Origin: Asterionella formosa
Taxonomy: Eukaryota
Length of the DNA stretch: 54,492 nt
Direction: 5' to 3'
NCBI GenBank assembly: GCA_002256025.1
Contig: NKIB01013636.1
Location: forward strand, 1-54,492
Part shown: positions 1 to 54,376 of the stretch, piece by piece
Layout: the number at the start of each line of letters is the position of its first letter
Position numbering within the stretch: position 1 is the stretch's first letter
Program-made: the position numbers and the translations under genes
Notes under the pieces: generated by a model
The model's database searches: none
What the model saw: the letters and a program-made list of their open reading frames with translations, nothing else
What the model was told of the DNA's origin: nothing

Positions 1-794
1 TAACTACGGTCTGTGTATCCGTCGGTGGACTCGCTTCTGGTCGGCCGTCTGATGAAAAGAAGGGAATTTCAATGAGGTGTTTCGTTACTTATCAAGAAAT
101 TTAACAGAGGACCACCGCCATCACGTACACAGCGTGGTCTTTGCGGCCGTCATTGGCATTTTGCTTTTGTGGCACATGACCATGTCGATATTGAAAAGTC
201 TTATTTTGGAAATGCCGGGAAACGTATAAATACCACGGTATGCACATGGATGTAGATACCGGTATGCATACCGGTATATGATACACCACTGGGAAGTCGC
301 AAAATAGTACCGGTAGCAATATAGCATGACTTTGCCGTACTGTTGTTGTGTCTCCCAGACAACACATATCATGCTGCCATCCAGTCCATAAAGCCTGGGA
401 GTCACAACGAATACCGGTAACAATAATAGGGCTACACAGTACGAACATCATCGATGTATTTCTTATGAATATACCGGTATATAAACAACATGTATCCCGG
501 TAATATCAATATTGCACTGCATGATACCGATACTGCTAATTTCTTGTAGAAAATATAACGACAACGGTACCCACCCCTTGATCCAGTCTCGTCATATACC
601 GATATGATACCGGTAGTAGTCTTTGGGCATTTGAATGTCCATTTCTATATAGCCCTCAGATTTTCTCAGGTCACGACATGCGATGGTGACCTAAGTCACT
701 TATTGTCCTGGTCCACCTTTTGCAAATGTAAGCAAGTATTCTATCTTTGTTCATTATTATATTAGAAAGACCAAGCAACTTCATCTTCTTTGAC

Positions 795-10699: not shown

Positions 10700-10711
10700 A
10701 GGGAGAATATA

Positions 10712-11697
10712 CCTGCAAGTTGCAATTATTTTGCTGAAATTGATGATGTGACAATTCAGGACAGGCGTTTAATTATATAGAAAACGTCATCAATTCAGTC
10801 CTTAAAACCGTCTGTATGCATGGTGATCACCACTTATTGATATACTAGGTTTTATGCTAAGTTTAGTATTTTTTTAACTGTGAATCTATAAATTTCATGA
10901 AAAAATGCGCTATCAGCTATTTCAATTTTTGTTGTCAATATTAGTGTTATTACAACTATTCTTTTACAATTGAATTTTTTATATTGTGCTCATTATATAT
11001 ACCCAATAGCAAAGCGTCGTTCTCATTTTTCATGGAGATATTTGTTAATTTTGTCATGGTCAAGGCTGGTGAGAAGACATGATGCACCATGCATACTCCA
11101 GCCACTCATGACGACTACTACTCTGCAGTGCTATACCAGTAAATATTTTGTCTATAGAAAATCAAGAATTGAATCATCTAAGATAAATAATTACAGGTAT
11201 ATACAAGCGCTTATGAGTGCTAGTACCTCAGGTACTACCCTGAGCAGCATGAGTCCAGCCACCACCAGCATGCATATGGTGATACTATGGTTTAATAGTT
11301 AGATCGGGTACAACTAGTTGTTACATGTGATGATGCTAGCATTCAACTATTTCAAATTCTAATTGATATAGAAATTTTCATTATTGGTTGTTTTCATCAC
11401 TTCAGCCAGAAAAGGAGAACAATTTTGAGTTTGGAGAGAATGAAGCAGCAATGTAAGCAAGATTAGCTTACTTTAGCTTCTGGCCACCCCTCTATTGCCC
11501 CAGTCATTGTCATTTTTTTCAGCCATTTGTCTTTTTTGGCATTTCTGTGTCTAGACAAAATAATTATTCACATCACTAACAAGTCATGATACTGTTGACT
11601 CAAAGAGAGAGAGTTGATGAAGTTCTCTTTTTATAAATTTTGAGTGCCTGTCCTGCGTCACATTGTCCATTTCAACAATATGACCGCAACTTGCTGG
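10712..11697. mobile_element. Non-autonomous TIR element (MITE-like), TA target duplication, ends CCTGCAAG...CTTGCTGG
   Basis: Left end TA|CCTGCAAGTTGC...GACAGGCG...AAAACGTCATCAA is the inverted counterpart of the right end TTGATGAAGTT...GCCTGTCC...GCAACTTGCTGG|TA. A third copy of this end lies at about 31860-31993. Confidence 0.75.
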
Positions 11698-11894
11698 TAT
11701 CTGGTACCAGTACAACCTGGTACCTGATACCAGGGTACCAGTACCGTACTAAAAACCAGTAGGTATGCATATGGGAACCACGTATCCTAACGCACGTGTG
11801 GCGTTCCATTTCGCCTGTAAAAGACGAGTAAATCGGGTAAATGCATAAAATACTCGGAGTATTGCTTTGAGAAAATCCTCATCAAGCAACACCA

Positions 11895-19058: not shown

Positions 19059-19087
19059 TGGTACCAGGTACCTGGTACCAGGTACCT
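19059..19087. repeat. (GGTACCW)n palindromic array
   Basis: tGGTACCaGGTACCtGGTACCaGGTACCt; 19059-19080 is a perfect 22-bp palindrome. Confidence 0.95.
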
Positions 19088-24310: not shown

Positions 24311-24603
24311 TACCGGTACATTGATGGGTCCAAGAAACCACATTTTACGGTAACAGTTACATACCTGTATGTAAGTTGCAGGCAGAGCGAGGATAGAACC
24401 CACGAGGTCTCCACGAAATTTTGGAATTTTCCCTACTGTGTACGATATCTACAGTTGCTATATATGCAGCATGATATCACACCGGCTGTGAGAAGCCGTA
24501 TGTAGACCGGTAAACATAGCACCAGGTACCGGTATGCAACACAGACACTCCGGTCGATAAAGCATTTTATATATCAATAGGACTGCCAGTAATCTGCAAC
24601 ACC

Positions 24604-27106: not shown

Positions 27107-27340
27107 CAGTATTAATTCTTATTTTGTGACGATAATTCTTTTGCCCCAGTACCTTCTGGAATCAAGATGAACTGTACTGATTTGATAGCCAGAGAGTTCC
27201 GGGCACTTCCTTCGTCAATTCATGCAATGGCACGTACTATAGGGTGCATCGAAAATCTTTCCTTTTTCTATAATTGGTGTTTATAATATTGCTTAAGGAT
27301 GTGTTGAGCATGTGGTTGTCTAAACGAAATCGGTGATACT

Positions 27341-27904: not shown

Positions 27905-28672
27905 ATTTAGAGATGGTTGGAAGGAATACAAGAGGAATTTGTGCTGAATGGGGAGAGTTGCAAAAGTCGTGTTGTTTTGATTTTGTGAGATGAAACTGTT
28001 CTTGAGGTGGTCGGCGGGGAGATAAATTGAATATTATTTATTTGAGTTTGATTTTGGATTTTGTTCATTTTTAATAATTGCTAAATTATTTACTCATGCT
28101 ATGCACGGGTAGTTGTTTGAAAGTTGAATTTAAGAATTGAGAACTTAAAATTACTGCAGCGGGACTCACCATAACTGCCGGTAAACGTGATGTCACGGTA
28201 GATGCTGCTTTCGTCTGTGCATGCATTTACATACATGAGTATATTTTTCGTTTTGGTTTGCTTGGGCTGGGCGGCTGTCAAAAATGTTTCACCAAGCAAT
28301 TCAGAATTCGAAGTCCCTGCCGGTAACCCGAATATAAACCGGTAACCGGCTGATTGAGGCATCAAAAGCTCGTCGTGTCGTCTCCACCTCAACATGTTCC
28401 AACGAACAAGCCAGTCAGTTTGAGCCCATCAGTTCATAAACACGGGAATGTCAAAATGAGGAAAATCGCTGGAAAAGGAAAGCAAATGGCAATGACTGGG
28501 GCAATAGAGGGGCGGCCCGAAGCCAGCAAATGTGAGCTAAAGCAAGTCTTGCTCGATTTCCTTTTTCTCTCCTACATAACACAAAAACTTTCTCCTTTTG
28601 TGATAGAAACAACCAATAATCAACAGTTCTACCGTAGAACCTGGTGTCTTGTACCTGGTACCCCTCAATGTA

Positions 28673-28818
28673 CACAGGCACGACTGATTTTACTTAGCGG
28701 GGAGTGCAAGACACTGGACCTTTTTTAATCGTCAAACATTAGGAAAAAACCACCTTCACCGCTGTTTTCTCTAAAGTCTACAACATAAATAGCAATAAAA
28801 GATATATTGTTTTTGGTT
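28673..28818 (+). mobile_element. TIR-element end (TA|CACAG...), inverted copy of 24156-24310
   Basis: tacacaggcacgactgattttacttagcggggagtgcaagacac... aligns with the reverse complement of 24156-24312. Confidence 0.75.
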
Positions 28819-29101
28819 CAATCAGCTTCTAGGATCAATTGAATTTCTATTTTTGGAGCACTGGCATGCCCGAATGTTGTCATGACAACAACAGAAATTT
28901 CTTGAGTGTGTACAATTTGTACATTATTCTACGATCTAATAAATTGTGTAGGTTCTACAACTTTGATCATGATAGAAATTGAGGTGAGCCACCCAAATCA
29001 TTTTCTATAGAATCATCTAAAACGACAATTAAATATCAATTAAAGCAAAATGTGTCAAACAATTTATTTATTAACTTATATCAACACTGCAAAAATGATT
29101 C

Positions 29102-29170
29102 ATTGTGAAATGGTAATGATGCATGGAAGCATGGATTGTGAAATGGTAATGATGGAAGCATGGAAGCATG
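29102..29170 (+). repeat. 33-bp-period tandem repeat
   Basis: attgtgaaatggtaatgatg at 29102 and 29135, with recurring gcatggaagcatg. Confidence 0.85.
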
Positions 29171-29276
29171 ATGGTGATGAGATATCAAAACATTTTGCTA
29201 CTGGTATTTTCCTCATTATACCATATATGTAGTCACCAGTCGATATAGTATACATAACATAAGTACCAGTAGGTCT

Positions 29277-31797
29277 ATGGTGGTGCAATGTGGTGCAGCG
29301 ACGACATGACATCACGAAGTCATTTTGAAATATTATTGTTGCGCATGTGCACCTTTTCAATATTCATCTCCAACGTTCTATCATGCACATAACCACACAG
29401 AAATGCAAATAAACAGCAAACTCACCAAATGTGATGATTGAAAGCGGTCACTGGTTCTTGCTATCGCTAACATGCAATTTCTTTTGTTTTACTAACCAAT
29501 TTACTCTACAATCAACCTTTCCTACATCCGCAGCCTTTGAAGAATTTTGAGTGGAGGAACTGGGGATAGAGACTGTGGAAAGTGGTGTCTTTGTTGCTGT
29601 CGCAATGATTCAGGAAGCATGCGATGATCGGCTTGATGAATTTTACATCAAAGAGTCGCATCCTTTCAGTGACATCTGAGTGGAGGAGACGCTCCATTTT
29701 TCTTTCAAGATTCAAGATCAAGTCAAGCTTCTCATGAGATTTTTTCGTTTTTGCAACCTCAAAAATCTCGTCATATTCTATGGACCCACTTTTCCGGTTT
29801 TTCTTTGGTGTTGTGGGGATGGTAGTAGCATCAGTTATTCGAATTGCATTAACTGGCTGTGTTAGTAGAACCATTTTCCTTTGTTGAATCTTGATAACTT
29901 GTAGTAGCAGCAATAGCATTAGAATACATCCGATTTTCTTCATTCTTCATAACTCGTGCATGTACCACAATGTTCGCAAGACTGAAGGAGATTGGGTGTG
30001 ACCTTGGGACATTCAGTCGATCATGTACATAGTTTTGAGGGATTAAACTTTGGTTGTCAAGGCAAGCACCAGCAAACATCTTGAAATTACAAAGCATGAT
30101 TCCTTTAAATTGATTATTCAATACATTCTGACATTCTCTCAACCCTACCTTGTAGAAAGCTCCGAAATTTCGCACTGAAAAACAACCGATGGTAGGTTTA
30201 AGACTAGTGTAGCTGTAGTCATCTTGACAAATATAGACTTGAATGTACGCACTTTGTTTAAATGATTGTTGTGTATGTGGGCAATTGCTAGCTAGCTGGG
30301 CATCTGCATCCTCAACATGAAACATTGCAGTCTTGAGTGACTGGTGTCGAGCAGATTTCATCAAGGCTTCCTCTGCTCCACCACCCCAACAACCAAACAG
30401 GTACCCAGTCCTACGGAGCATGTGCATACCGACCTTCAGATTCTGCAAACCAAGCACCTCCCTAACAAGTTTAGTTAACCGGTTTGTTCCCACTTTGTAG
30501 GACATCTGCGTGACAAAAATGCCATTAGCCGGTGGACATTTTAATTCGTCCTATGTAGGAAAAAGAAAACCTCCCCTGATCTTTGCACAGTGTATGTGAG
30601 ACAGTAGGAGTGACACTGGACAAAACTCGGGAACTCTTCATCGATCCAGAGGAACAGATGCACCCAGTTTTCGTCTGACTTCTCAAAGACTTTTAGACAT
30701 AGAACTCGGATATTTCCGGCATCATCAAATACAAAATGCTTTGCTTCGAAATGGTCTAGCTCGATGTCCACGAAGTCATCAAAGCGAAGGAACAGAAAAA
30801 TAGAAACCTGGATGATTGTAAATGTCTGCAAGTCAATTAATGAATTGCTGGACAAAAGACGATCACGCAACTGTCGTAACCAGCAAGGTAGAAGCTGCTC
30901 TGTAGGTTGCCTTAAGTAGTCTCGTCTATCCATCCCAATTCTATCCAAACAATCTGTAAAGACCGAATTGTATGCAGGATTACCAGATCTAAGTAGAGCA
31001 GGATGACCCTTGTGGGTACTGCATCCCTTATACCACTCATCAAAGGGCATATCACGACAATCCTGACAAGCCTGTATGTAGTTACCAATTCGATTGTGAG
31101 CTTTGTGAATGCACCATACTGCAGTACGAAATCCCTTACGCTTTTCAGGGGCATTCCAATCCCCACGACATTTTATAGGATGCCCAATGACATCAACCTC
31201 TTCCTTTCCACCAAGATCCAATAATGTCATACTTGATGCGTTGTATTTCCACCATACATACATTACAACGGATTCTACCTTCATCGATGGACAGTTTGCA
31301 GGGCATTTGTCCCTAAGCATCAACAGTGACTCATAATCACCAATCAACTTGAAGAATTTTGTAAGACCACGAAAGTGAACCTCATAGCTTATCTCTGTAC
31401 TACGATACCGGAGTGCACTTGTACCAGTCAATTTTGCCAAACGTCGGTCAACAGATGTCTTTTTCAATTTGTCCAAAGCATTCAGAATTCCTTGGGCTAC
31501 TTTATCTTCAATATCTGCTGGTATATCCTTGGCATATAAGACATCCCGAGGTAGATTGGCAAGCTTTTTAGTCTCACCACGTGTATTCTTCTTACTCATT
31601 CTGAGCAACAATTCAAGTATATGGATGTGAAATCGGCAACTTATGTGAACAAATTATTCAACAAATATTAGCAGACAGTTACTTTGAGGATCACATGTAT
31701 TCCTATACAGTTATGTATATTAATATAGTTGCACGGATTTGATATAGTCTGGTGCAATTCAGGTTACTCTAAGTAAAGTGGTGCAATGGTGGTGCAA
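29277..31797 (-). mobile_element. Crypton-like tyrosine-recombinase element (putative extent)
   Basis: YR pseudogene bracketed by an exact 12-bp direct repeat ATGGTGGTGCAA (29277-29288 and 31786-31797). No RT and no TIR pair around it. Confidence 0.55.
29512..31599 (-). pseudogene. Tyrosine recombinase (Crypton-like), disrupted
   Basis: R (FLFLRFDD), K (KSD), CPV (restored by a frameshift near 30628: PEFCPV...GGFLFP), HxxR (HMLRRTG) and H (SARH). The expected catalytic Tyr reads His (TAMFH, codon 30317-30319). In-frame TAG at 30551-30553 and a 4-bp duplication at 30287-30297. Confidence 0.85.
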
Positions 31798-31859
31798 ATG
31801 CCAATGGGCAGTTGAATTTACTAATTGTTTTCCCTGTTTCATCCCGTTTTGGGAAAAGT

Positions 31860-31993
31860 CCCAGTATACTATTAACAGTCATTATGAAAACGATTTTAAT
31901 GAGTGAACTGATGACGTTTTCTTTGTATGTAAACGCCTGTCGTGCGTCACGTTGCTTATCAATTTCAGCAACAAAATGACCGGATCTTGCAGG
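31860..31993. mobile_element. Solo right end of the CCTG/CAGG TIR family
   Basis: ...gatgacgttttc...aaacgcctgtcgtgcgtcac...atttcagcaa...tgaccggatCTTGCAGG|TA matches both arms of 10712-11697. Confidence 0.75.
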
Positions 31994-32228
31994 TACGCAC
32001 TTTTGCTCTGAAGTTATGCCAGTATGTGCCTAGCTAGGTATGTATGCATGCATTCATATCATGCATGATTATAAATAATGAAGGTCTATCCCTGCCCCTA
32101 TGGTACCAGGTGCCAGCGAGCTTGGTAGGTACATATTACCTGGTCGTCCCTTGGTCATCGGAAATACTACATACCGGTATATGATCACCACATCATGGAT
32201 TTATAATGGCGAGTGTGCGTCGTTATAA

Positions 32229-32271
32229 CAGGTACCAGGTACCAGGTACCAGGTACCAGGTACCAGGTACC
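32229..32271 (+). repeat. (GGTACCA)n heptamer tandem array
   Basis: Five full GGTACCA units plus GGTACC (32231-32271); related motifs continue to about 32345. Confidence 0.95.
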
Positions 32272-32585
32272 TGATACACTGGTACTCCTACCAGCCAGGT
32301 GAAAACCAGTGCACCAGGTACCAGTACCAGTTACCAGGTACCATCATCAACGACATCACGGACAATTTACTAGACTAGTTTACAGGTACCGTACCGGCAT
32401 ACCTAAAGATGATACGAAGGACACCCCTGTTGGTGTGGTTGCTCACATGTCGGTACATTGCTTTTGATTAAAAATACTGTTGGACGACACTCTGACGGAT
32501 TACTGCAGACCTGTGTTCCACTCATCCCTGTCTTTTCTTACTTGTTAGACGACATAGACCGAAGGAATTTCAGTAAGAAGCAAGA

Positions 32586-34160
32586 ATGCTGGCTTCAAAA
32601 CGACTCCTGACACCTTCAGCGCTTTTCCGCCTTTCAACCTTGTCCAGCAGCAAGAACACACCACGCCTAGCAGTTATTCGTTGCTTTTCTGGAAGCGAAG
32701 ATGATCCATTCGGTGTCAATTACAAAGATGGCGAAGGAAACATCGGTCCTTCAGAGGAATTGCCTCCAAAACTCGTCAGGGATAGAATGACCGGAAAATT
32801 GACCGGCGTCGTCGAGCAAACCCTGACTGACCAACAAAAGAAGCTCCTAGAAATGGACGAGATCGACTCGCAAAAGAAGATGATGGACGATTTGGTCGAA
32901 AGCTGGGTTCAATCCGAGAGTGACAAGATTGGAGATCCCATCAAGCAGGCTCAATTCGCCAGTCGCATCCGAGAGGAGACGATGGCTCTCAACGTTTTTG
33001 GAAGATCACCAGAGGCCACTTCCCTTCAGGGTAAACTGGATACTGGTGATGATGCCCTGTACAGTGACCTTTCCTCTGATTTATCACCGAAAGAATTTAA
33101 GTCCCTTCAAAAGTACATGTCTCGAGAGAAGGACTACGAGCTGAAAAGGAATCATGATGATGTTCCTGTCAAAATGTCACCTTACAGAGAATCGACTTAT
33201 GCAAACCCTGATCCTGACCTAGACCTCAGGTGGTTGTCCTCTGGTTCTCATAGTGAAATGGACGGTGGGAAAGTGGAAGACCCATTCGCTGATTTGATGC
33301 CTCATGATCTTAACCCAGCTCGTTTGGTCAATCGGGAGAAGGCCAAGCAAATCCCAACTGAACTTGTTCATCACAACAATATCGTTCTTTTGCGCCGATA
33401 TCTGACACCAGGTGGTCAGATCATGAATAGAGTACAGAGTCGTTTGGGAGCCAAGGATCAGAGAAAGATGTCCAAACTAATCAAGCGAGCTAGGTCAATG
33501 GGGTTGATTCCCTATATGGGACAGTGGAAGGTGGAGAATCACGGAAGCATCTACGATAGCGACATCTTCCTGAAGAGAAAATGGGAAGAAGAGCTAGAAG
33601 ATAGAGGTTTGGTTCCGCCCAAAATCAAGGAAGCTGATTGGGAAGCTATGCGAGAATCTGCGACCCTCAAGTATCAAAAGGAAGCTAAGAGGCATGTGGG
33701 TCTGGATGAAAACCCATGGGAGGCTGATCCGTGGTGCCTTTTGGCAGATGATATTTATTTGGTCATGAAGACCAAGGGTATCAGACTCACAAAGAACAAT
33801 GACGTTTACCTTACTTTTGGAATCTCGCAAATGAAGTTAAGTGGAAGTGGAGACGTTGTATTTGTTGATAAAACTGGGGTCATTGCCGAAGGACGCTTCG
33901 AGTTATCTCAAAGTGGTGCCGTTTCGCTCTCGTGGAATAAGGCAGTGAAGTGGAAGGATGATCATTGGGAAAGCGTGACTACGGCTGATTTGGTTACTGG
34001 CTTCAAATTTACCGATCAGAGCGTTGCCAAGTCTACACTCAGCTATGGAGACATCTTGGGCAAAAGAAAAGTTAGTCCCATCGACGCAATGAAGGCCAAT
34101 GAATTCAGCGCACACGCTATCGAATGGAGTGCAAATGAACTACGTAAGTACGTGGACTAG
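32586..34160 (+). CDS. Mitochondrial ribosomal protein bS18m with long N-terminal extension and extra C-terminal domain
   Basis: Mitochondrial-type presequence (MLASKRLL...IRCFS). S18 core HNNIVLLRRYLTPGGQIMNRVQSRLGAKDQRKMSKLIKRARSMGLIP. About 170 further residues of globular-looking sequence. Confidence 0.8.
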   Translation: MLASKRLLTPSALFRLSTLSSSKNTPRLAVIRCFSGSEDDPFGVNYKDGEGNIGPSEELPPKLVRDRMTGKLTGVVEQTLTDQQKKLLEMDEIDSQKKMMDDLVESWVQSESDKIGDPIKQAQFASRIREETMALNVFGRSPEATSLQGKLDTGDDALYSDLSSDLSPKEFKSLQKYMSREKDYELKRNHDDVPVKMSPYRESTYANPDPDLDLRWLSSGSHSEMDGGKVEDPFADLMPHDLNPARLVNREKAKQIPTELVHHNNIVLLRRYLTPGGQIMNRVQSRLGAKDQRKMSKLIKRARSMGLIPYMGQWKVENHGSIYDSDIFLKRKWEEELEDRGLVPPKIKEADWEAMRESATLKYQKEAKRHVGLDENPWEADPWCLLADDIYLVMKTKGIRLTKNNDVYLTFGISQMKLSGSGDVVFVDKTGVIAEGRFELSQSGAVSLSWNKAVKWKDDHWESVTTADLVTGFKFTDQSVAKSTLSYGDILGKRKVSPIDAMKANEFSAHAIEWSANELRKYVD

Positions 34161-35352
34161 CATAACATAAGTTTACGTTGACTAGAATAACAATGGAGAC
34201 CGATATTTCTTTCTGCATTCCTTGTTATTTCCAAGGTACAGATTGATGTTCCAGGATAAAATCTCCAACCACTCATTCATGACTGATAGGATGTAGCCAT
34301 TGAGTTAATGGTGACTTGAATACTAGTGCATACCAGCAGGGCACATGGTACCAACCCTTGTAGAATGTTGAATTCTGATTGTGTATACCTTGTTCTCAGC
34401 AGCTGAAGCAGGGTTGAAGAGTGGATGCCATTGCCTGTAAGGACGCAAGCTCATATTGCATTAAGAATTTGGCCAGGTTGCTGAATTGGATGCTGGATTT
34501 GTGCCAAATATATCAGCTCGTTAAGCCCATTCTTGCACTTAAAGCCGCCTCTGTAAATGACGATGTCATAATGTTCATTTTGTGACTTCTTGGCTTCCTC
34601 CCAATTTTCATTTTGAAATCCAGAATTACTTCTCGTTATAATTGCTATCAAAGCATCATCTTTATTATCAAAAAAGTATTTTCTACAAAGTAAGCCTATA
34701 AATCTTATCATCTTCTCTATTATATTCAATTTTGTATGCTACTTTATGTTCCTTTTTTGTTCAATGCTTACTATTTTATTCCTTGATATCATCATAAAAA
34801 GGTGGAGCAATAGTTTGCTGCATCATTGGTGGCAGTGATTTGGCATGTTTATTACAATGGAGTCCAGTCATTTTGATACATTCTTCTATAGCTGTAAAAT
34901 ATTCTATGCTAGTAGTACAGTCGTCCATGAATCAAAAAAATTTATGATCAGACATGATTGGCATTTTTAACATTATGTGATGCTGATACCTTACTTTAGT
35001 GGAATTAAGGTTTTTATTGAAGGGGTGAAAAATCTATCTATCACCATGATGAAAATGTGTTGCTTTACCCTAAATGAATAGAAACTGATTATCGATGTGG
35101 CATACATATACATATCAGCCAGGAGTGAACTACCAGGAAGTACCTGGTACAACCAAATGCATGCCAATTTCTTGTCAGATTTTGTTTGCAATTCAGATGA
35201 TCAGAATGACCAGTTTAGCAGCTGCAAACTGAAACAAACAAATAAACCAGGACAGCAGCATACGTAGCTGGGGGGGAGAGTATTGGTTACCAGGTGAGGT
35301 ATTATAGTCTACCGGTACCATGATAGCAGTTACACCAGTTACAGTACTGTAA

Positions 35353-35945
35353 TGCTTTAAAAAAAGAGTGAGCTTAATGTACATGTAAATTTGAATGTAT
35401 AATTTTGAAACTTCCAAGCTCATGCATGTTTCAAAATAGAGGTGATCTTCGGAGGTGACGTTCATTTGTGTTCCCAACTTGAACTGAGAATAAACTGCAT
35501 CCTCTTCCTAAATACACATAGCTACTATGACATGTCTCATCTTGACCTATCTCAACTTAGGCCAGATGCTGTTTGATCAATGGCTGCTTACAGAATGATC
35601 ATGTTAATCATCACTAGATTATACCTGGTTTGCTTCTTTAATGTTCCTTGATTTTGCGGACATATCTGCAATTTTTTAGTCAATCATTTATTGATTTGGC
35701 CTCTATTAGGTCTGGTCGCCTTCAACTAGTAGAGTCCATTTAAAAGGCTAGCTAGAGAGAACTTCTCCTGAAAGTTACTCTCTCAAATGTGGCATTTTAC
35801 ACACGTTATTTAACCATGTGTCCTTGAATCGATCATCTAGTGGATTGTGGTACATGTTCCTACCGGTAATCAGGTCACTAGAGACGAAAGAAATTGACAC
35901 TCTCATAACCTGATCTTGAATCAGGAATCTCTATATGCTTCAACT
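35353..35945 (+). repeat. Dispersed ~590-bp repeat, copy A
   Basis: Colinear with 42859-43434, from aaaagagtgagcttaatgta to gaatcaggaatctcta.atg.ttcaact. Confidence 0.95.
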
Positions 35946-36619
35946 ATAGTTTGGGATACAATTCAGCATATCGAATTGAATACACGGTATGAGCGCAGCA
36001 TCAGTATACCGGTATGCATGTATGGCCGGTTTTATCATTTTCTGACTACGTGGTACCAGGTACCCTGGTACCGGGGGACCCATCACGAACCACACATGGA
36101 ACAATGAACACCAGCCAACCACCAACAACCACAAAAAAAGTATACTGGTAGATATGCCCGGTAGTACAGTTTACTGATGGGTAGTTACTACCGGTACCAC
36201 CGGTAGTCTACAAATTATCATTATCATGATAATCATTTTACATCCCATATAGTACCGAATACCGGTACACTAAGGAGCATTTTACAATTGTTTATCATCA
36301 TCTTTCGTGTCACATTGCCGATATCAGTCTGGCATCATCACCAAAAAATAGAAAATGATTCAACTTTTGTCATGATTGGCAAATATCTGATGGAATTGAT
36401 CAAATATAAATAATCTTCCATTTACTGTAATTCGTAGAATTCATGGGTCAGTGAGTTGTTCTCTTATCGATCATAGCGACAGAGAGTCGCTAATACTGCA
36501 GGGCAAGTCTTGTAATTAAGATGGGATACAAGGAGAGAATCCTTCTGGCAAGGAGGTTTTCTGCCGGAACAGGACCTGGGATTATTGAATGCTCTGATGG
36601 AAGGCTAAGGGAACGAGGA

Positions 36620-39427
36620 ATGCATTCTTACTTTCATTTCTTTTTCGTTATCTCAGCCTTTGTCGGGTATTCAGCATCGGCGCTTACACCATCCAGGCCG
36701 AATCCATTTAGGTTCGCACAAGGTAGGTCAAGGACGATCCTCCATTATTCGGTCGAGAGTTCGAGCTCAATTTTATCGGAAAAGGATCAACGCTCCTTTC
36801 TCACTGATTGGGCCGGAATAGAGGATCCAGGCTCACGTGTCTGCGCTTCCATTGTACCCGAGGCGCTTGATCCAAAAGAGGGCTCAGAGGACACCACAGT
36901 GCTGCCTCATTCAATTACTCAGCTCAGGAGCATCACGTGTGATGCCCCTGCAGTTCTCCTCAAATCAGGACCGGGAACTGGAAAGACGTATGCCCTTGCC
37001 TCACGAATAGCTCATTTGATTGGTTCGAAGTCGTGTGGACCAGAGCAAATGGTAGTTCTCAGCTTTACAAACCGCGACGCTCGGAATTTAAAGGAGCGCG
37101 CTATCGACATGATGTTTGGAGAATTGTCGTCGTTGGAGACTTCCGGCCTTGCCAAAGACCAGGTAAACGATCGACTCTGGAGTGGTACCATCCATGCATT
37201 TGCTTCTTCTCTCGTGAAAGCCTATGGGATATCTCGTCGTAAGCTTCGTATTATCTCCAACACCGAATCGAGGATGCGAGTTGATAAATGCTTGCATTTC
37301 CTCCTGGATGAAAAGAACTACCAGTCAGACACTGAAAAACTAAGCAAGATTCGTCGTTTTCATAGAGACGCCCTTTCGGAACTTAGACAATCGAGAGGTA
37401 TGGTTATGCATCAGATCGGACGATGCATAGAACTGTGGAAAGAATCATCTATCTTACCGCCTCCTTCAGTTCAAGGCGTCCTTATTGAAAAAGTGTCGGA
37501 ACCCCGGAGCAAGCAAATGCAACTAGAAAATTGCATCAAAGTTGCAATTCGACTGGGAATTAGTAGCAATGTAGCTCAATTGGCTTGGGAAGTGTACCCT
37601 GAGTACCAAAGTATGCACGAAAAGCACGGAACTGCTGATCCATCTGACGTTGCATCCCTTGCCTACCATCTATTGCTGTCAAATCCAAAGAAACTCACAT
37701 CTATCAGAGGAAAGCTGAAACACATGATAATAGACGAGTACCAAGATGTTAGTATCGCACAGCATTCGTTAATTCGACTAATCATTAGAGGTATAGTGGA
37801 CGAAGATGAGACGTATACTGTGCGACCAATATGTGAGGACAGTGTTGTTCCACCTGTTTTGACAGGTCGAAAATCTGGTCCACTCAGGGATGAACAAGAA
37901 TTTTCCTTTAACGTTCCAAAACTTTTTTGTTGCGGAGACGGAAACCAATCTATCTATGGTTGGCGAGGAGCTGCACCCTCTCTAACTGTTGACGGATTTA
38001 GGAAAGATTACCCGCAAGGTATTGTGGTACCGCTCGAAACTAGCTTTCGGCTTTCAGCTGACATGTGGAATACAGTCAATCTTTTGGCTGATTCTGATTA
38101 CTTTAGATCCAATACAGTAGTACAGGCCAAGAGCCCAATGAGCCAGCTCCACCAAAATCAGTTGCTTCGATTGAGTGTTGACCTTCCTCTAGTTGAGACT
38201 TTGTCAATGATCATTGCAGCGGATTCGTCAGCTGATGACTCCGCTACAATGCGTATTCAAGGTGTTTGGGATGCACGCGAAGAAGCCAAGTTTATAGTAA
38301 AAAAAATTCGAAAACGGTCAAAGAGTCGAGTTACAAGGGTCGTCAATGCCCTAAGATCAGCAACTGGTCATAGTAGCGTCGTCCAAACCGTGGCTGATCC
38401 ATCCGATATTGCTATTATTGTTCGATCTAGCAATCAGATGACAATGATAAAGGAGGCCCTTAACTCCGGCGGTGTTCCTTATGTGGTCTATGAAAGCGAG
38501 TCCTATGGACAAAGGCCGAGTCCAGTTTACCCCTCGGGAGAAATAATCCAAGCAAACCAGATGAAGCCAGTTTCCTTGATGTCAATGCACCGAGCAAAAG
38601 GTGAAGAGTTCGACGACGTTTATCTACCGGGGTGGAGCGAAGGGGAATTTCCCCATCCCACTGCCGTTTCTTCAAATCGCGTGGATGAGGAACGACGCCT
38701 TGCCTATGTTTCCATAAGCAGAGCCAGGAGTCATGTCACAATCACTCATTCCTTTGTTCGGAGGGATTTGCATTATGGACCCAATCTTGCTCAGAAGCTC
38801 GTCACTATGCAAATCAGGCCCAGTCGCTTCCTTTACGAATTAGTTCCTGATGCACAGATCTTAGCAAATGACGTAGTGACGAACTCTGGTTATTTGAAGA
38901 AAAATGAAGTGAACCAAAATGTACCAAGTGTGATTTGGAATCGACAAATGGGTTCAAAGGAGTGGATGGCAGGTCATAATTTACCTTCTCACTTCGCTAC
39001 ATCATATTCGGCGCCGAAACATTTTGAACTTCCCAAGACAACCGCACTCAACACTACTTTTCTCGATTGTCAGAGAAGGCAAAATTCTTTTGCAAAAAGC
39101 CGAGCACATCAAATAATCGTTGTGGAAGGCTCTCACACCGGTGAAAACTTATTAAAGGTGATTTATGGCCTCAATCAGGTGTTCAGAGGAGTTCGTGGGG
39201 CTAAAACAAAATACAAAACAGTATTCCGCAGCTATCTTAAAGATTGGTTCAATTTCACTGGGGGTAGTATTACAACTTTCTCTGACGAGTGGACGCTTGA
39301 AGCGTCCAATATCACGAAAGAGGTGTTGGCAAAGGTTATTGCAAAGCGAGCATCTAAGAAGGCATTTAGTCAGTGCACTACCCAGCAACTTGGTCTCTAT
39401 TTGGTTAGCAAGCTATTTGAAGAATAA
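36620..39427 (+). CDS. SF1A UvrD/Rep/PcrA-like DNA helicase, probably plastid-targeted
   Basis: I GPGTGKT; Ia LSFTNRDA; Ib GTIHAF; II IIDEYQD; III GDGNQSIYGWRGA; IV LETSFR; IVa IAIIVRS; V MSMHRAKGEEFDDV; VI EERRLAYVSISRA. M34 (36620) begins a signal-like MHSYFHFFFVISAFVGYSASALTP; an upstream ATG lies at 36521. Confidence 0.9.
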   Translation: MHSYFHFFFVISAFVGYSASALTPSRPNPFRFAQGRSRTILHYSVESSSSILSEKDQRSFLTDWAGIEDPGSRVCASIVPEALDPKEGSEDTTVLPHSITQLRSITCDAPAVLLKSGPGTGKTYALASRIAHLIGSKSCGPEQMVVLSFTNRDARNLKERAIDMMFGELSSLETSGLAKDQVNDRLWSGTIHAFASSLVKAYGISRRKLRIISNTESRMRVDKCLHFLLDEKNYQSDTEKLSKIRRFHRDALSELRQSRGMVMHQIGRCIELWKESSILPPPSVQGVLIEKVSEPRSKQMQLENCIKVAIRLGISSNVAQLAWEVYPEYQSMHEKHGTADPSDVASLAYHLLLSNPKKLTSIRGKLKHMIIDEYQDVSIAQHSLIRLIIRGIVDEDETYTVRPICEDSVVPPVLTGRKSGPLRDEQEFSFNVPKLFCCGDGNQSIYGWRGAAPSLTVDGFRKDYPQGIVVPLETSFRLSADMWNTVNLLADSDYFRSNTVVQAKSPMSQLHQNQLLRLSVDLPLVETLSMIIAADSSADDSATMRIQGVWDAREEAKFIVKKIRKRSKSRVTRVVNALRSATGHSSVVQTVADPSDIAIIVRSSNQMTMIKEALNSGGVPYVVYESESYGQRPSPVYPSGEIIQANQMKPVSLMSMHRAKGEEFDDVYLPGWSEGEFPHPTAVSSNRVDEERRLAYVSISRARSHVTITHSFVRRDLHYGPNLAQKLVTMQIRPSRFLYELVPDAQILANDVVTNSGYLKKNEVNQNVPSVIWNRQMGSKEWMAGHNLPSHFATSYSAPKHFELPKTTALNTTFLDCQRRQNSFAKSRAHQIIVVEGSHTGENLLKVIYGLNQVFRGVRGAKTKYKTVFRSYLKDWFNFTGGSITTFSDEWTLEASNITKEVLAKVIAKRASKKAFSQCTTQQLGLYLVSKLFEE

Positions 39428-39736
39428 CCATTCGTCGGGGAGTGCAATCTCGAAGCTATATATCGAGATAATAGTCATAAAACAAACTATTACACATAAA
39501 TCTGCGAGAAGGGACTGTCTAGATAATCCAGTGCTACAGTGATGATTTTGAATATTTTTCTGCCGTTGATTGTCCGAAAGGTGTGTTTTATGCTGATCAG
39601 AGATGAGAGAAGCAGAAACTGCGGTGACGCACCGTTCAAGGTCACATCACTGTACGAGCGACTCCCAACCATGGAAGATGATGTCGACAATGTGTTGGCC
39701 ATATCATGACTGGTGGATCATGGGATGCCAAGATTC

Positions 39737-42135
39737 TCATGTACACCCACCAATGTGGGGAGACTCCAAAACGTCTATTTCCTTGGTAGTTAGCGGAGGA
39801 GAAGAACAGGCACTACCAGGATGCTTCGGAGCAAGGGACAAGGGAGTCTGTTTGTACAGGTCGGTTGATGCCGTAACACTGTTGGCACCAGCAGTGTTTG
39901 AGTCTTCCCGGGAAGGCAGTTTGACTCCAAGCGCCGCTTGTAAGGCAGGAATATAACCCATAAATTCTTGAACATAAACTGATGAGCTCTGTTTTCGAAG
40001 CAATGGTAGAGGCATGGGTGTAAAACCAGAAGTAGAACAACTACTTGTACTTCGATAAAGGGAAACACAGGGCACTTGATGGTGTCGGGATCCTGGTGAC
40101 GATATCACTGGAGAAGCAAAACGTGGGGTTTCGTGAAACAGAGTCATTCTCACTGATCCGGGGGTCCCACCAGGACGAGGCAAAGCATACAATGGCCGAG
40201 CTGGATTAGCTTCAATTGCTTCGTCAACAAAGGGAGACCACGATGGAACAGTGACCGAGCTCACAGGATCGTATCCCCAAAGTTTTGATCCCGCATCAAC
40301 ACTTTCATTGGTGTACATAAGATCGCCAAAAAACTTGGTAGGAGTCGTAGCCGTTGGGGTTGGGACGTATTCAATATGCATTTGGCTCGCTGGTTTTGTC
40401 ACTGATATAGGGTATCGCCTTATGGATTGAAGTGGCTTTTTATATCCTCCCTCCTGCTTCAAAAGTCGGCGTTTCTTTGTGAGGAAAGCTTCCTTTATTG
40501 TGGCATTCTTTTTTGTTAGATTGATTGCAACGGTTTTCATTCGTCGAGAGGAAGTCATCTTAGCATGGCCTTTGGCATCTTCCATCGCTTTCATACGAAG
40601 TTCCTTCGACCCAGTTAGCGCAGTTAAATCAGCGACAAGGGCTTCATTCGATAAGGCCGCTTTGGGTTTAAGGTGCATCTTAATAGTTGGCTCATCGGTA
40701 TAACGAACAGGAGTAACTCGGGTACGGCCTGACAGAGTCACGATTTGTGGCATTTCTTTTGAAGTTTCTTCGCTGACGTCCAGTTGGTCTTCTTCGGACG
40801 AAGAATAACTTGAACGCCCAGAGTTCTTTCGAGAAACGAGATTCCGGCGTGTTTGCTTTGTGACAGCTGGACGCTTACTGCTGCAAGGTGGTCCATTTCG
40901 GAGGATCGAGCCAAGCTCTTCGGGGCTCCCAATATCCCGATGAAATTGGGGATTGTGGAAAGCTCCCTTGTATTTACCCACCTGCCACTTTGACCAACCA
41001 TACACTAACAAAGCGGAAACGAAGATGTTAGTGCAAGCCGCAAAGGGTTAAGAATAACAAAACGAAAACGTACTGTTTAGCTGTCGTTGGAGAGAAGTGA
41101 ATTTTCCATGCCGAAAATGTTTCTTCAAAATGCGCTCCAACTTCTTGCCCTACGAAAGAAAATATGGAAAAGAGAAGAAACGATCAAAAATATGAAGGGG
41201 GAAGAACGGACTCTCAGAACACTGTACCGTCGGCTTAAGGCAAGAAAAATGCGATATGAACGCATGTTCTCATACTTACTGTGGTCACTTTGATGACGAA
41301 GGCTTCCCCATCTTCAACCCAATCAATGACATCAGGGTGCTTCTTGGCAGTATCTGACACGAGGTCATGAACGGCAACCGGAAAGTATGTTTGATCTAGG
41401 CCGCCTCCAACTTTTTTGGGGGTCTTGGATGTAGAATTGCTTGCGATATTGTACGCTTTCGGAGAGGCGCTAAGATGAGTCAAGGCATCAACAGCCTCAA
41501 GTTCATGAGGAGTGACTGCAATTGAAGGTGCAGAGTACGTTGGAGAAGAATGGGCGCGTGTTCCAGGTGACACTGATTCAGCTTGATTCTGGAAACGTAG
41601 AGTCTTGCCACGACGTCTGGGGAGTACATCGGGGGTGTTCGTGTTGGAATTGCTCTTGACTGGAGCGCGCTCGTTTTCTTTAGAGATGTTTTCGTCGACT
41701 GCAGAATCGGGGGCAAGAGACTTTATCATATTCTTTAGGATCTTGCCGCGCTGCTGGGTGGGTCGCAAGACAGAGATATTAGAGGAGCATGCACCGTCTT
41801 CCATTACCCCCATTACTGTTTCACTCGTTGTATTTTCGGGAGGAGCGGAAAGGAAAGGCATCTGGAAGTGGCACAATTAGGCTAGGGGATGAGAACGAAC
41901 GGATCCTTCAGAAAATTGAAACCAAAACAGCATTGGGGTGCTCCCTCCGAGGGTTTAGTCACCACAAACTTACCTCTTCCTTCAACTCTTCGGCACTGAC
42001 AGGCTCAATTGCACTGTCTTCATTTTTCTTGAGTTGAATCGTCCCAACAAGGCTCGGACTAGTATCTATATTTTCCAAGCATAATTTTGCCGCCATATTC
42101 ACAGCAATCTGAAGTGATGCTCCGTTCTCTCCCAT
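39737..42135 (-). CDS. Heat-shock-factor (HSF)-type transcription factor, 4 exons
   Basis: Spliced HSF domain FPVAVHDLV...VIDWVEDGEAFVI..|GKKLERILKKHFRHGKFTSLQRQLN|MYGWSK...FHNPQFHRD. Exons 42135-41974, 41861-41280, 41149-41074 and 41004-39737, all with GT-AG junctions and in frame. Confidence 0.88.
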
Positions 42136-42858
42136 GGTCTTGATCTTGTTCGCTTTCTTTTCACTCTTGACGGATGGGCGATGGTATCAAATTGAGCAAT
42201 CAGAACACTTTGTGAATTGTTGCAAAGGATCAATGTCAACAAGCACACTGACGGCATTCAATTCAGAAAATGAAACGATTTTTGAGAGGAGGCAGCAGCA
42301 TCTAGGCGAAAGGCGGAAATGCTATGCCGTAAAGAAAGTCATCCATTGACCGCGTTGTTCAATTCAAAATACAGATGGCGGGCTTTTTTATACTGCGTGG
42401 TCTAGCGGACTAACATACCGGTAATAGCTATACTCCCTACTTATTGTCGGGCAAGATAGCTAATCGAACATCGCAGTTCTCATTTCATTCACGACTTACG
42501 CCGAATCACATATTCCAGCTGCATCACTTTTTGTCATAATTGTCATAATTCCACAACATGTAAAATATACTGATAAGCCGATTGAAGAGGTGCCGATCAT
42601 GGCTGGATGAAAGGGCTTGCATCATGCTCAGATCAAATCAAAAACAGCCGATTGATGATTTCGTGTACAAAAAAAGACAAACATTCGATAGATTTATTGT
42701 GAGGATTTTTTTTAACCGGTATATCCCTTTTATATAATTTTTATATACTGGTAGTTTGGTAGATGCTACGAATCTGTAGCTCTCACGGAGTAAAAGTTGC
42801 TAGAAAAAATGTTTCTACACAATTTGTTTGTTTTACAATGTTTGCTAGTACCGGTAGT

Positions 42859-43434
42859 TGCTTTTATAAAAGAGTGAGCTTAATGTAAATGTGAATTTGA
42901 ATGTATAATTTGAACCTTCCGAGCTCATGCATGTTTCAAAATAGAGGTGATCTTCGGAGGCGAGGTTCATTTGTGTTCCCAGCTTGAACTAAGAATAAAC
43001 TACATCCTCTTCCTAAATACACATTTTTCTAATCTTGACCAGCTCTCAACTTAGGCCAGTTGCTGTTTGATCAAAGACTGCTTACAGAATGATCCTGTTA
43101 TTCATAACTAGATCATATCTAGTTTGCTTCTTTAATGTTCCTTGATTTTGCAGACATATCTGTTATTGTCTAGTCAATCATTTATTGATTTGGCCTTGTC
43201 TAGGTTGCTCTGATCGCCTTCTAGAGTCCATGTAAAAGGTAAGAGAGAACTTCTCCTGAAAGTTCCTCTCTAAACTGTGGCATTTTACACGCGATATTTA
43301 ACCATGTGTCCTTGAATAAATCATCTAGTGGATTGGGGTACTACATGTTCCTAATCAGGTCACTAGAGACGAAAATTTATTGACACTCTCATAGTAACCT
43401 GATCTGGAATCAGGAATCTCTACATGTTTCAACT
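42859..43434 (+). repeat. Dispersed ~580-bp repeat, copy B
   Basis: Colinear with 35353-35945, same orientation. Confidence 0.95.
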
Positions 43435-46560: not shown

Positions 46561-49500
46561 ATCAATCTACCAATCGTGAGTACGGATGGAGTATTTGAGG
46601 GAAAAAATCGCCAAGGGGTTACTAGAACAACTGAGTCATGACACAGCGCAAGACAACAACATGCACTCGGGGTGCTTGTACCAGTACATAACTTGGTTAG
46701 CTATCATCGCATGATTGTTTCTGATAAGTGCTGAAGGAAACTCTCTCAAGTCGGCATTGCTTTGGAGTAGTGCGAGTTCAATTTGCCAATTTTACATTGA
46801 CAATGCGCACTTATTTCAGCCTACAGCGGCGATGTTTATGGTTGCATCAATTTGGCGCATGAGGATGGCGAAAACTCTTTTCACTGTCATTTCTTGGCCG
46901 ATTCATACCTTCTCGGCATATGTACCATACGTTACTTGAGTTGCATTTCGCAATGATTATCCTCTAAATCAATTTTATCTTGAACTTTTAAAATATGTAG
47001 TTGTAACATGAACTAGTTTTTTCTTGGAAATCACTGTATGATTCTGAACCATCGCATGAAAACCTCGAAGAGAAGTTTTGTTCACTATAATAGTTCATAT
47101 TATTTACGTGAAGTGCACAAATATAAACTGTAGATGGTCCATGCATGAAATAAGACACTACAAATATCATTACTATTTCACAAATAAAGATGCAGGTAGA
47201 AAATCAATTAGCCACGAGAGCATGATATTAGTTGAACTTTGAAATGAATTATTTGAAACATCAACTAATTCAGTCTTGAGTTCAAAGTTCATTGTGAGAA
47301 CTTCACATGAAACCGTTAAAAGTAACCTTTTTTACGGAAAGAGTGGCATTAAATGAGGACCCATTTTTCTTCGAACCATTTATTCTCTACATACATACGA
47401 AGAAGTTTATAACTGTAGAGAAACAGTAACTTGTTTTCGATCATGGAATGCGCAACTGCGAAAGTGGCGATGATGGGAAGGAAGAAAACGACAGAATGCT
47501 CGTTTTAATAATTGGAACCGTTTTATGTCCGGTGCTCTTTTCATGTTATAAATATCATAGTAGCATGTTTTATTCAGTTTCCCGAAAATACTTGAGTGGC
47601 CGGCCAATGTAAAACAGCAAATGTCGATGTGTATGCACATGTTCGCTATCAATATATGTACTGTATGTCATATTGGTTTCGAATAATTTATTTAGAAGCT
47701 AATAATATTTTAATTTGTGATTAAGAATTTATACTCACGTCTAAATAACTAATTAAAAACACATTTTTCGAGTAAGCCGACCCTCACAAAGAAAAGTGGT
47801 ATATTTTCTACGTAATGCGCACTACAAATAAACTGCTCGGCACTTGAGTGGCTGCAAATTGACGCAATTGTTTTCTCTCAGAGGGAATACCAGGTAACTG
47901 GTAGGACATCAGTATTACTGGTGTCACTATGATAGAAGTGCTGTACCTGGTATCTGGCCCCGGTAATCCTAGAATCCATAAAAGCAATAAAAAGTAGTTC
48001 TGGCTTGTGGTAACAATGTAGTAAAATAAAACTCGTTGTAGGGGTCAAAAAGCTTCATCTATGGATTAAAAGATGTGTACTGAAAGACAACGTTATGAGT
48101 CAAAATGGGTGACATAAAACAGCATTCACATGCAGCACTTGAAAATTTTCCTCTGGTATATTGGGTACGGAAACGTGTAGTGGGAGTAATTAACTAAAGA
48201 AGATTGTTGTTGTCCCTCTTTTCTTATAGTAAACTGATTAATAATTTTATAAGTTGCCATGTGTTGATTAGTATTTGGATGCCCCTCTCGCAGGTGATGG
48301 ATAGGGCAATCATACAGCATGCAACGCCGCTCACCATCATCATTGATGGTTGCAATGGATGAATTACTATAACTAGTATGGATGAGGCCAATATTCTAAC
48401 AACAGTTGCTAGTCAATTAGAGGCTATTGGAATGATGAACGTGAATGCCACTATATTGATAAGGCATCCATGTAGCTATCATCCGCCATTCTAGTCAGTT
48501 TGTAAGGCTGACAGATAGGTCGATTTGTAGATTATTGGAGGTAAAATCCATTTTTGATCCCACAGAAGGTCACGACAAGAACGTTCTTCGGATGTCCTAA
48601 CACTAACCTCCAGTAGCATCTTCAAAATCTGGTCACCTGGAAATTGCCCAACTCATGCTGGCGTTTCCTTGGTTTCTTGGATGCAATATAATCACGGTTG
48701 CATCAGCATCCTTTTCCTGTTCCTTTCGTCAGGATCCCTTTCTTATGCAGTCGCTCTCCATGGAATCACAAACACCGCCGACTAACGGAGATTCGTAAAG
48801 AGAGAGAGTGAGTTGACGTTTTGAATGGCAACACAGCAAGCCAAACAATCAACCTTCTCCAAGGAGTTGATCGGATTATTGACGAAAGGTCGCCTTGCCT
48901 CTGTCAAGTCCTCATCAGTAGTAGCTATCCAGCGGTTTATTAATTCCCAAATGTAACATTCACCTCGATGTCGACCAACCATGATTAGGGCACATGAAAG
49001 GACGATTATCGAACTACAGTGCTGGCAGAGTGATGATCACAAGGATCATGACAAAGCAACAAGCAACAATGAGCCAGCAAGCAAGTGCAATTAGTAAAAC
49101 CTACATACACTCATACCAGCAAGAAGCAATGTACTCCACTTTTCAAAGCTTGCTGGTTGTTCATGTTCATTTTTTCAACTGAAGATTTAAAACAATTTCA
49201 TCATGGTTTTGTCAAATGACATAGGATTGGCTATTACTATTGCCTATTTTTCAATCGTGACGTATGCAATTCGATTGCTCAGAGCAGCTGATTTATAGCC
49301 AAAATTTCTCAATCAAATGACTTGCTGGTAATCATTGATGTGTGTGATTTTTGATGTTTGATAAAGGCACCCACATCAATAACTTTAGTCAAAAGATGGA
49401 GTGATCAAATGTTGGCTCTCAGTTTTTAGGTGGACCTGGTACCAGTACCATACATACTTAAGCTTTCTTCATAAAAGAAAGCGTAAGTCTGGAATGCTGC

Positions 49501-53508: not shown

Positions 53509-53759
53509 GGTCGTTGAAGATCACTACAGCACAATCAACCTTTGAAACTCTCCGTGCTTTATAGAAAGGATCGGCGGTGGGTGAATCCTTCCAGGACTGC
53601 CAATACCTAGCTTGCTATTCTCTTGATATTTTTGTTACCGGTATACCGGTATATCATTGGAAAAGGAATGTCGTCTCCTGTAAGATGGTGCGATCATTTT
53701 ACGTCCCTGAATGTATACCGGGGTACATCGGTAGACTACCCTGGTACAAGGGTGCTACC

Positions 53760-53793
53760 GGTACCAGGTACCAGGTACCTGGTACCTGGTACC
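53760..53793. repeat. Perfect 34-bp palindrome (GGTACCA)2 GGTACC (TGGTACC)2
   Basis: GGTACCAGGTACCAGGTACCTGGTACCTGGTACC equals its own reverse complement. Confidence 0.97.
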
Positions 53794-54376
53794 TAGTACT
53801 CCGAGTAGCCACCGGTAGACAATACTCTTTTTCTTTACTACATGACTCTTGGGGCTACGTACATGTATAGGGTTTACATATTTTGAATACGGCACACATT
53901 ACTGAGGGGCAGGCAAAGCCTACATGAATCCAGTACCAAGACCTATGTAGTCGGTCGTGCCTAATTAATCATGTATATTTATTGCCCATGCTGTATGTAG
54001 TGTGTTTGTATTCCTTTTGCTTACCGGTAGTCGGATACCTTAATTAGGATATGCATAGGTGGTCCGGGATGGCGCGGGGGTTGGGAGGAACCCGTGCGAC
54101 CAGGTTACCAGGTACACTAGAACGCACTGCTGGTCCGAAAAAGGTGTATCCAGTTGAATCATGTGAGGAACGCACATGATAAATATTTAGAGAGTATCAT
54201 GTGCGTTGTTTTTCGGGGTGGGTCGGAATCCTCGCTCGTGTTGGAACCGTTGTTTGTGCCAAAAGCGAGCGACTGAGGGTCGTTCTTATCATTCCGAATT
54301 TGCTGTATCATTTCCGGGTTGCGGGCAAAAAGTGACGGTTGGTATCAAAACACGGTATCAGCAACGGTAACTTGAT

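Follow-up and report, generated by a model that had tools for sequence, protein, structure and literature searches.

Tc1/Tc3, Mos1 mariner and Sleeping Beauty leave footprints in which a few letters from the ends of the element stand between the two copies of a duplicated TA. Mariner/Tc1-type transposases cut the non-transferred strand 2–3 letters inside the element, and because of this the flanks keep short 3' overhangs of the element ends. Such excision scars are usually rare curiosities of laboratory crosses. In C. elegans, taCATGta is a rare Tc1 excision footprint, and in a study on Phytophthora a scar origin was judged unlikely there (PMC3520976). Here, we describe a stretch of 54,492 nucleotides from Asterionella formosa (GCA_002256025.1, contig NKIB01013636.1, positions 1 to 54,492 of the forward strand; the whole stretch is referred to as the window), in which short words of the form TA-x-TA, foremost TACCGGTA (TA + CCGG + TA), crowd the DNA upstream of genes. 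We suggest, with a probability of about 0.68, that these words are excision scars of a family of cut-and-paste elements that duplicates TA and has terminal inverted repeats (TIRs).

The word family was found by an unbiased k-mer scan and a scan over all TA-x-TA classes. TACCGGTA is present 27 times in the window, compared with a mean of 0.15 in 100 dinucleotide-preserving shuffles (the largest count among the 100 being 2) and with 0.26 expected in the scan of TA-x-TA classes. The related words TACCAGGTA/TACCTGGTA (TACCWGGTA) occur 26 times versus 0.22 expected, TACCAGGGTA/TACCCTGGTA 5 times versus 0.04, TACCAGTA/TACTGGTA 15 times versus 1.04 and TACCGTA/TACGGTA 9 times versus 2.46. TACTGGTA/TACCAGTA may in part be CpG-decayed TACCGGTA; the observed/expected ratio of CpG is 0.79. 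For the one-letter words TACTA/TAGTA the excess is only 1.8-fold (132 versus 71.8), and the control TAATA/TATTA is at expectation (114 versus 113.8).

What joins these words is the order of their parts. We define long scars as TA-x-TA in which x, 4–6 letters long, is a prefix of CCAG or CCTG followed by a suffix of CTGG or CAGG. There are 78 such words in the window, about 1.4 per kb, versus 2.8 expected and at most 7 in 100 simulations, while wrong-order joins of the same pieces are found 3 times versus 4.2 expected. With x of 2–3 letters, the prefix+suffix words show a weak excess, 43 versus 33.4. The make-up of a scar is the start of one element end plus the finish of the other end.

The location of the long scars relative to genes is also skewed. 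None of the 78 lies within DNA of an open reading frame (ORF), although ORFs, merged by us into gene models, make up 50.6% of the window. Intergenic intervals that border the 5' end of an ORF hold 77, and the single remaining scar is found in one of the six 3'-3' intervals, which together have 1470 bases. The 4.1-kb interval that precedes the CASP gene contains three scars, each at most 250 bp from the gene start.

Many of the words are stacked in arrays, in which the units share TAs and often have mixed orientations. In the window, 6 neighbouring pairs of array units have the same and 5 have different orientation, i.e., the mixing is almost random. Three arrays and one group of isolated words, all read from the sequence and without strand, are the following:

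32233..32269, five CCAGG units between six TAs.
53756..53798, mixed array of CCGG, CCAGG, CCAGG, CCTGG, CCTGG, CC and G between TAs.
19062..19084, mixed array of CCAGG, CCTGG and CCAGG.
257..615, six isolated TACCGGTA, upstream of the ORF starting at 732.

The apparent insertion of whole units can be followed in two copies of a dispersed repeat of about 0.6 kb, alignable from approximately 35353/42859 to 35944/43430 with a mean column identity of 90%. The copies and the words in which they differ are:

35353..35944, + strand, repeat copy A, a 5'-truncated member of a high-copy dispersed family (alignment, contig depth).
42756..43430, + strand, repeat copy B, with the 5' boundary of the family near 42756 (alignment, loose contig ends at 42756).
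35861..35868, no strand, TACCGGTA in copy A, read as a scar inserted at TA.
43352..43353, no strand, the unscarred TA in copy B that is homologous to 35861 (sequence, alignment).
43339..43343, no strand, TACTA in B versus TA in A, also a tandem duplication of TAC.
43392..43396, no strand, TAGTA in B versus TA in A (sequence, alignment).
42849..42856, no strand, a further TACCGGTA, towards the 5' end of copy B; among the other variants of the family that were listed, none has a CCGG-containing insertion.
35340..35351, no strand, a TA-CAG-TA-CTG-TA string in A, at the position of the family that corresponds to 42849 in B.

Three of the differences are clean: +CCGGTA in A (35861), +CTA in B (43339) and +GTA in B (43392). 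The remaining indels, of 12, 4, 6, 4 and 1 letters, are not clean TA-x-TA. MAFFT placed its gaps at 35853–35868 badly, and the two indels there (+CTA in B, +CCGGTA in A) were settled by eye. An earlier note, made from the letters of this DNA alone, had described the differences between A and B as insertions at TA. Its positions all agree with the sequence, and the extra TAGTA (35727–35731), TAGCTA (35749–35754) and TAGCTACTA (35519–35527) that it listed in A are present, TAGCTA being a tandem duplication of TAGC. Its central claim, that TACCGGTA is a single TA plus an untemplated CCGGTA, is borne out, and other copies of the family polarise the difference as an insertion; a repeat consensus containing TACCGGTA, which would have made B a deletion, is not what we find, as other copies are without the six letters. 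The extension of the same process to the one-letter TA-N-TA cases finds no support: TACTA is a duplication of TAC, and there is no clustering near long scars, as TA[CG]TA occurs at 2.68/kb near them versus 4.04/kb away (control TA[AT]TA, 2.90 versus 3.46). The insertion reading is thus supported for the CC..GG words, and the one-letter TACTA/TAGTA, which have no spatial link to long scars, are kept outside the scar count.

The polarity was read from assembled contigs, not from reads: Logan contigs of four public runs (X1, X2, X12 and X16) were mapped onto 23000–42858 at 85% likeness, so that copy B is covered up to 42858. In X1, a depth of about 100 corresponds to a single copy, and since the A/B repeat reaches 58–76 times this value there, it belongs to a high-copy family; for 42198–42858 the mapped contigs give a 26-fold depth. 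Contigs of other copies omit the six letters at 35861, with a depth of the omission over the total of 6712/17599 in X1, 2072/220981 in X2, 383/650 in X12 and 150/157 in X16; these are not clean fractions, because short contigs ending at the indel are also counted in the totals. The only X1 contig with TACCGGTA at 35861 (record 7, 35833–41336) has no differences from the window and is single-copy, with a depth of 100.1. It starts at 35833, so that its first 31-letter word finishes on the first of the inserted letters (35863), and the branch of the assembly graph is thus placed exactly after TA. This fits a TACCGGTA that is private to copy A.

For the second site, contigs join 42847 to 35362 with 14 intervening letters, at depths of 4917 in X1, 282 in X12 and 96 in X16. 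When aligned to B, these joined contigs have TA in place of TACCGGTA at 42849–42856, and this is the best-supported variant; two further variants in X2 are also without the six letters at 42849. Since other copies are without the six letters at 35861 and have TA at 42849, both sites look like insertions, derived relative to the high-copy family. A third difference of this kind is found among near-identical diatom-like contigs from different samples and from an organism other than that of the window, where L046, L059 and L099 have TA, L113 has TACCGGTA and L057 has TACTGGTA. Among the 12 best-supported indels of two repeat families, beyond which there are 72 more, only that at 35861 is an untemplated TA-x-TA. 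Three others (35749 TAGC, 30287 GCTA and 31398 TAC) have the TA-x-TA form but are plain tandem duplications, and the other eight are unrelated to TA.

The window also contains an element with exactly the ends that such scars call for. An inverted-repeat scan gave arms at 10709–10752 and 11657–11700, and three long ends of the same TIR family can be aligned over about 60 letters:

10710..11699 including the TA flanks (element 10712–11697, 986 bp), + strand, non-autonomous TIR element (inverted-repeat scan).
11698..11760, no strand, TA-anchored scar string abutting the right end of the element, with TCTGG, CCAG, CAACCTGG, CCTGA, CCAGGG, CCAG, CCG and C.
31926..31995, + strand, solo right end of the same TIR family, which finishes with CTTGCAGG at 31993 and is followed by TA at 31994–31995.
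49114..49330, + strand, small remnant of the same TIR family, TA + CCAGCAAG ... CTTGCTGG + TA; a further right end lies inside it at 49146–49156.

The complete element has TA on both sides and TIRs of about 55 bp, which are about 78% alike. Read inwards, the left end begins CCTG (CCTGCAAG) and the right end CCAG (CCAGCAAG). Two hallmarks of the Tc1/mariner type, duplicated TA flanks and TIRs, are found here. The scar string starts directly at the right TA, and the family ends at 31993, 49116 and 49328 likewise abut TA. In the remnant, the right end aligns to the family TIR and the left matches it in the first 10 letters only. TACCWGCAAG, the form of the ends with their TA, occurs 6 times in the window versus 0.16 expected; one of the six (17370) lies inside the ABC-transporter ORF and may be there by chance. 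An ORF of 133 amino acids (aa) within the element has no Pfam match.

Two further observations were made at this element. A TACCAGTA word inside it, at 11134–11141, could be the scar of a nested insertion. A direct repeat of 101 nt (10212–10312 and 10605–10705, 84% alike) ends just before its left TA.

The words extend well beyond the window. The mixed palindromic 20-mer GGTACCAGGTACCTGGTACC is found in at least 120 metagenome contig stretches. Most of these array-bearing loci have a G+C content of 0.40–0.47, and approximately 20 of the 120 have 0.53–0.71. Because the presence of an array was the criterion by which the 120 loci were selected, they tell how widely the words are spread but not how frequent they are. 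Counts were made on 65 of them (G+C 0.35–0.52, identical duplicates removed, seed masked, 155 kb), and here TA-CCWGG-TA occurs 430 times versus 1.6 expected. Between TAs, CCAG/CTGG is found 149 times versus 7.6, CCG/CGG 126 versus 16, CCGG 43 versus 1.4, CCATGG 6 versus 0.1 and C/G 1448 versus 470. Neighbouring units in these other loci, with the seed masked, have the same orientation in 49 cases and a different one in 35. Between near-identical contigs of different samples there is also a difference of a single 7-letter array unit. The ORFs of the low-G+C loci (66 of 81 scanned) carry DUF6824, HA and HSF, families that are common in diatoms. The one locus checked further, L020, is a diatom judging from its magnesium chelatase, which is 74% identical to that of Pseudo-nitzschia australis.

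We suggest that the words could have arisen as follows. A transposon family with TIRs that begin 5'-CC(A/T)G would insert at TA and duplicate it. On excision, a few terminal letters of each end would remain on the flanks, and end joining would seal these letters between the two TAs, giving TA-CC+GG-TA, TA-CCW+GG-TA, TA-CCAG-TA and similar words. If the element leaves 3' overhangs of 2–3 letters, the last letters of CCT-3' and CCA-3' could pair and yield CCWGG, and loss of the paired letters by trimming would yield CCGG. Each scar would add a new TA, so that self-feeding hot spots could build up into arrays of mixed orientation. Insertion would favour the open DNA just upstream of genes. Hairpin/P-nucleotide (hAT-like) models were dropped because they predict a copy of the variable flank, not a constant CCGG.

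Several observations weigh against this explanation. The full 3+3 scars (CCWWGG) are absent from the window, in which TACCATGGTA is found 0 times. Isolated words make up 22 of the 27 TACCGGTA versus 5 of the 26 TACCWGGTA, the other 21 of which are in arrays, a split for which the scar reading gives no reason. Only one whole copy and three or four further ends of the TIR family stand in the window versus the 78 scars, and the resident family looks old and sparse. At 35861 the share of the omission is small in X2 and under half in X1. Pfam searches gave no transposase in 12 of the 29 window ORFs of at least 150 aa, in 39 of the 92 of at least 90 aa (the rest mostly overlap scanned ORFs), or in 66 of the 81 ORFs of at least 180 aa from the metagenome loci; because no transposase was found in the ORFs scanned, the superfamily is not proven. 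In the 120 loci TACCWGCAAG is not found, so other diatoms would need elements of their own, and a search of the loci for elements bounded by TA + CCWGG gave only array-versus-array matches. To these are added the published promoter motifs and the CTG junctions of the complete element, which are weighed together with the alternatives below.

One alternative is that a dimeric transcription factor binds TACCGGTA and the related words, that selection maintains these in promoters and that the indels between repeat copies are incidental. The promoter-proximal excess which it predicts is seen, since 77 of the 78 long words adjoin ORF 5' ends, and most TACCGGTA stand alone. TACCGGTA is moreover identical to a high-confidence promoter motif of Phytophthora infestans, M94, which is listed beside M93, TACATGTA (PMC3597505), and the MYB-related protein PsMyb37 binds TACATGTA (PMC11134190). 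A Tc1-scar origin of TACATGTA was considered and dismissed by Seidl et al. (PMC3520976). Selection on binding sites leaves unexplained, however, that in each of three independent comparisons entire units of six letters turn up at TA, that half-sites are as enriched at a spacing of 1 as at a spacing of 0, that only prefix+suffix words are in excess and that a resident element has exactly these ends. A scar origin followed by later use as binding sites would meet both readings, as the words could be regulatory and yet have arisen as scars. We consider it unlikely that binding sites alone are the explanation. Still less can be said for the view that the arrays are minisatellites with a unit of 7 bp, (GGTACCW)n, extended by replication slippage, where changes of the middle A/T mimic orientations, isolated words are decayed or newborn arrays and there is no transposon. 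Such slippage cannot make TACCGGTA from a lone TA in a non-repetitive context, as seen at 35861, at 42849 and in the L113 group. A minisatellite gains new units only beside existing ones, and the isolated TACCGGTA do not follow this. Neither the nearly even orientations of neighbours (49/35 in the loci, 6/5 in the window) nor the recurrence of the same unit at 120 loci or more and its match to the element ends is explained. The five identical CCAGG units at 32233–32269 do speak for slippage, as do the 21 gap letters in that region in X12 (described below), the one-unit differences between near-identical metagenome contigs, the several short indels of the repeat families that are plain tandem duplications, and the arrays in contigs of G+C 0.53–0.71, which probably belong to other organisms. 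Slippage therefore probably adds changes of copy number on top of the scars.

The TIR element could also be a mere user of pre-existing TACCWGGTA words. It would then duplicate the central CWG as a 3-bp target, and its true ends would begin CAAGTTGC; some PIF/Harbinger-like elements make 3-bp duplications. On the + strand both junctions of the complete copy do read CTG (TAC-CTG / CTG-GTA), a direct CTG repeat that fits better than a TIR mismatched at its third letter, and every end seen is flanked by TAC or GTA. With one complete copy, however, agreement of the middle letter is a one-in-two event, and the remnant at 49114–49330 would be flanked by CAG at one end and by CTG at the opposite end. 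The scar predicted by such a duplication, TACCWGCWGGTA, is absent from the window and has a single occurrence in the 120 loci, and neither the abundance of the words nor the TA/TACCGGTA indels would be accounted for. This possibility is, as the minisatellite one, very improbable in our view.

Excision scars thus remain the explanation that we prefer. It can be speculated further, although we regard this as doubtful, that in diatoms the DNA upstream of genes forms a hot spot of TA-targeting transposons, that self-feeding scars there become cis-regulatory palindromes, and that the stramenopile promoter motifs TACCGGTA/TACATGTA began as scars. If the scar origin holds, scars would be a main ingredient of promoter DNA, recurring in many diatom-like contigs, and would provide a readable record of past transposon activity and of chromatin landing sites. 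They would also offer a concrete mechanism by which short palindromic words in promoters are born, and a testable origin for oomycete promoter motifs that are studied as transcription-factor sites. The literature searched, which has most subscription journals outside its coverage, gave no description of excision scars in diatoms. In a search for TACCGGTA together with diatoms only the Phytophthora paper was found, and for the array strings GGTACCAGGTACC and CCAGGTACCAGG no paper containing either was found.

The window itself is gene-dense and eukaryote-like, with ordinary nuclear genes as long open frames. It encodes an ABC transporter, a UvrD-like helicase, Tfb4, CASP, actin, MoaC and ribosomal protein S18. 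For its amine oxidase, the best named relatives (33–39% identity) are from the pennate diatoms Seminavis, Cylindrotheca, Fragilariopsis and Pseudo-nitzschia. The nearest protein relative, at 66% identity, is on a contig of 1.9 kb. The stretch is present in 20 of the 24 public runs listed, which come from 13 studies and are labelled mostly as freshwater or lake metagenomes.

A second repeat, of about 3 kb (28850–31836), has a depth of 18–136 times single-copy in X1. It contains two minus-strand ORFs (29849–30550 and 30541–31653) that have no Pfam match at E up to 5 and none among PDB sequences. An Atlas feature search points to tyrosine-recombinase-like (Crypton-like) clusters; there are only four unnamed homologues, and the AlphaFold model is unusable (mean predicted local distance difference test score, pLDDT, of 39.3). 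This repeat was considered as a possible autonomous partner, but no left end of the TIR family stands beside it, and we therefore do not connect it with the scars. Nearby, an inverted repeat of 117 nt (24185–24301 and 28679–28795) brackets the CASP gene and a neighbour gene. Contigs from three runs connect both arms on opposite strands. The 4.4-kb segment between the arms may exist in both orientations, or the arms may be a dispersed family.

Some further words and arrays should be mentioned. An X12 contig over 31837–32891, which includes the promoter with the CCAGG array, shows 21 gap letters (3 x 7) relative to the window, and this suggests that the copy number of the array varies between populations. 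Elements with CAG ends classically leave TA-CAG-TA as their scar. TA-CAG-TA/TA-CTG-TA is enriched both in the window (11 versus 5.0 expected) and in the 65 loci (156 versus 33), and TACATA/TATGTA is enriched in the window (61 versus 26); these words hint at a second element family. The homology of copy A to its repeat family ends at the TA-CAG-TA-CTG-TA string (35340–35351), with none upstream, and this string may represent scars of an element with CAG ends. A (GTACGGA)n run is located at 18915–18945 of the window. In the loci, TA-CTCCGAG-TA is found 10 times versus 0 expected and TA-CTCGAG-TA 6 times versus 0.1. TA-GC-TA (151 versus 46) and TA-GAC/GTC-TA (114 versus 29) are also in excess there, and neither fits a model with CCWG ends. 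The loci of G+C 0.53–0.71 (L009, L017, L021, L027, L028, L033, L043, L062, L067 and others) mostly show simple 7-letter runs, and the array of L033 stands beside a tRNA-like stretch.

Compared with the known systems, the words of the window resemble Tc1/mariner footprints in the duplication of TA, in the terminal letters left between the TAs and in the presence of a TA-flanked TIR element; since the ends are inverted repeats, a palindromic word results. They are unlike these footprints in that they are enriched approximately 100-fold in the window, confined to gene-upstream DNA and stacked in mixed arrays. They also appear as putative scars in many diatom-like contigs, and the element ends begin CCWG. 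As no transposase was found in the ORFs scanned, membership of the superfamily is tentative. The Phytophthora motif M94 is the identical 8-letter TACCGGTA, also promoter-proximal and in another stramenopile (PMC3597505), and TACCGGTA and TACATGTA are alike in being TA + 2 letters + their complement + TA. The words of Phytophthora are treated as transcription-factor sites, whereas in the window the presence or absence of units at TA and the matching element argue for a scar origin. Finally, the small non-autonomous, TA-flanked mimp elements of Fusarium, miniature inverted-repeat elements of the Tc1/mariner type, are likewise gathered in gene-upstream DNA, namely that of effector genes (PMC3599309). 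There the elements themselves mark the promoters, while in the window it is mostly the scars that remain.

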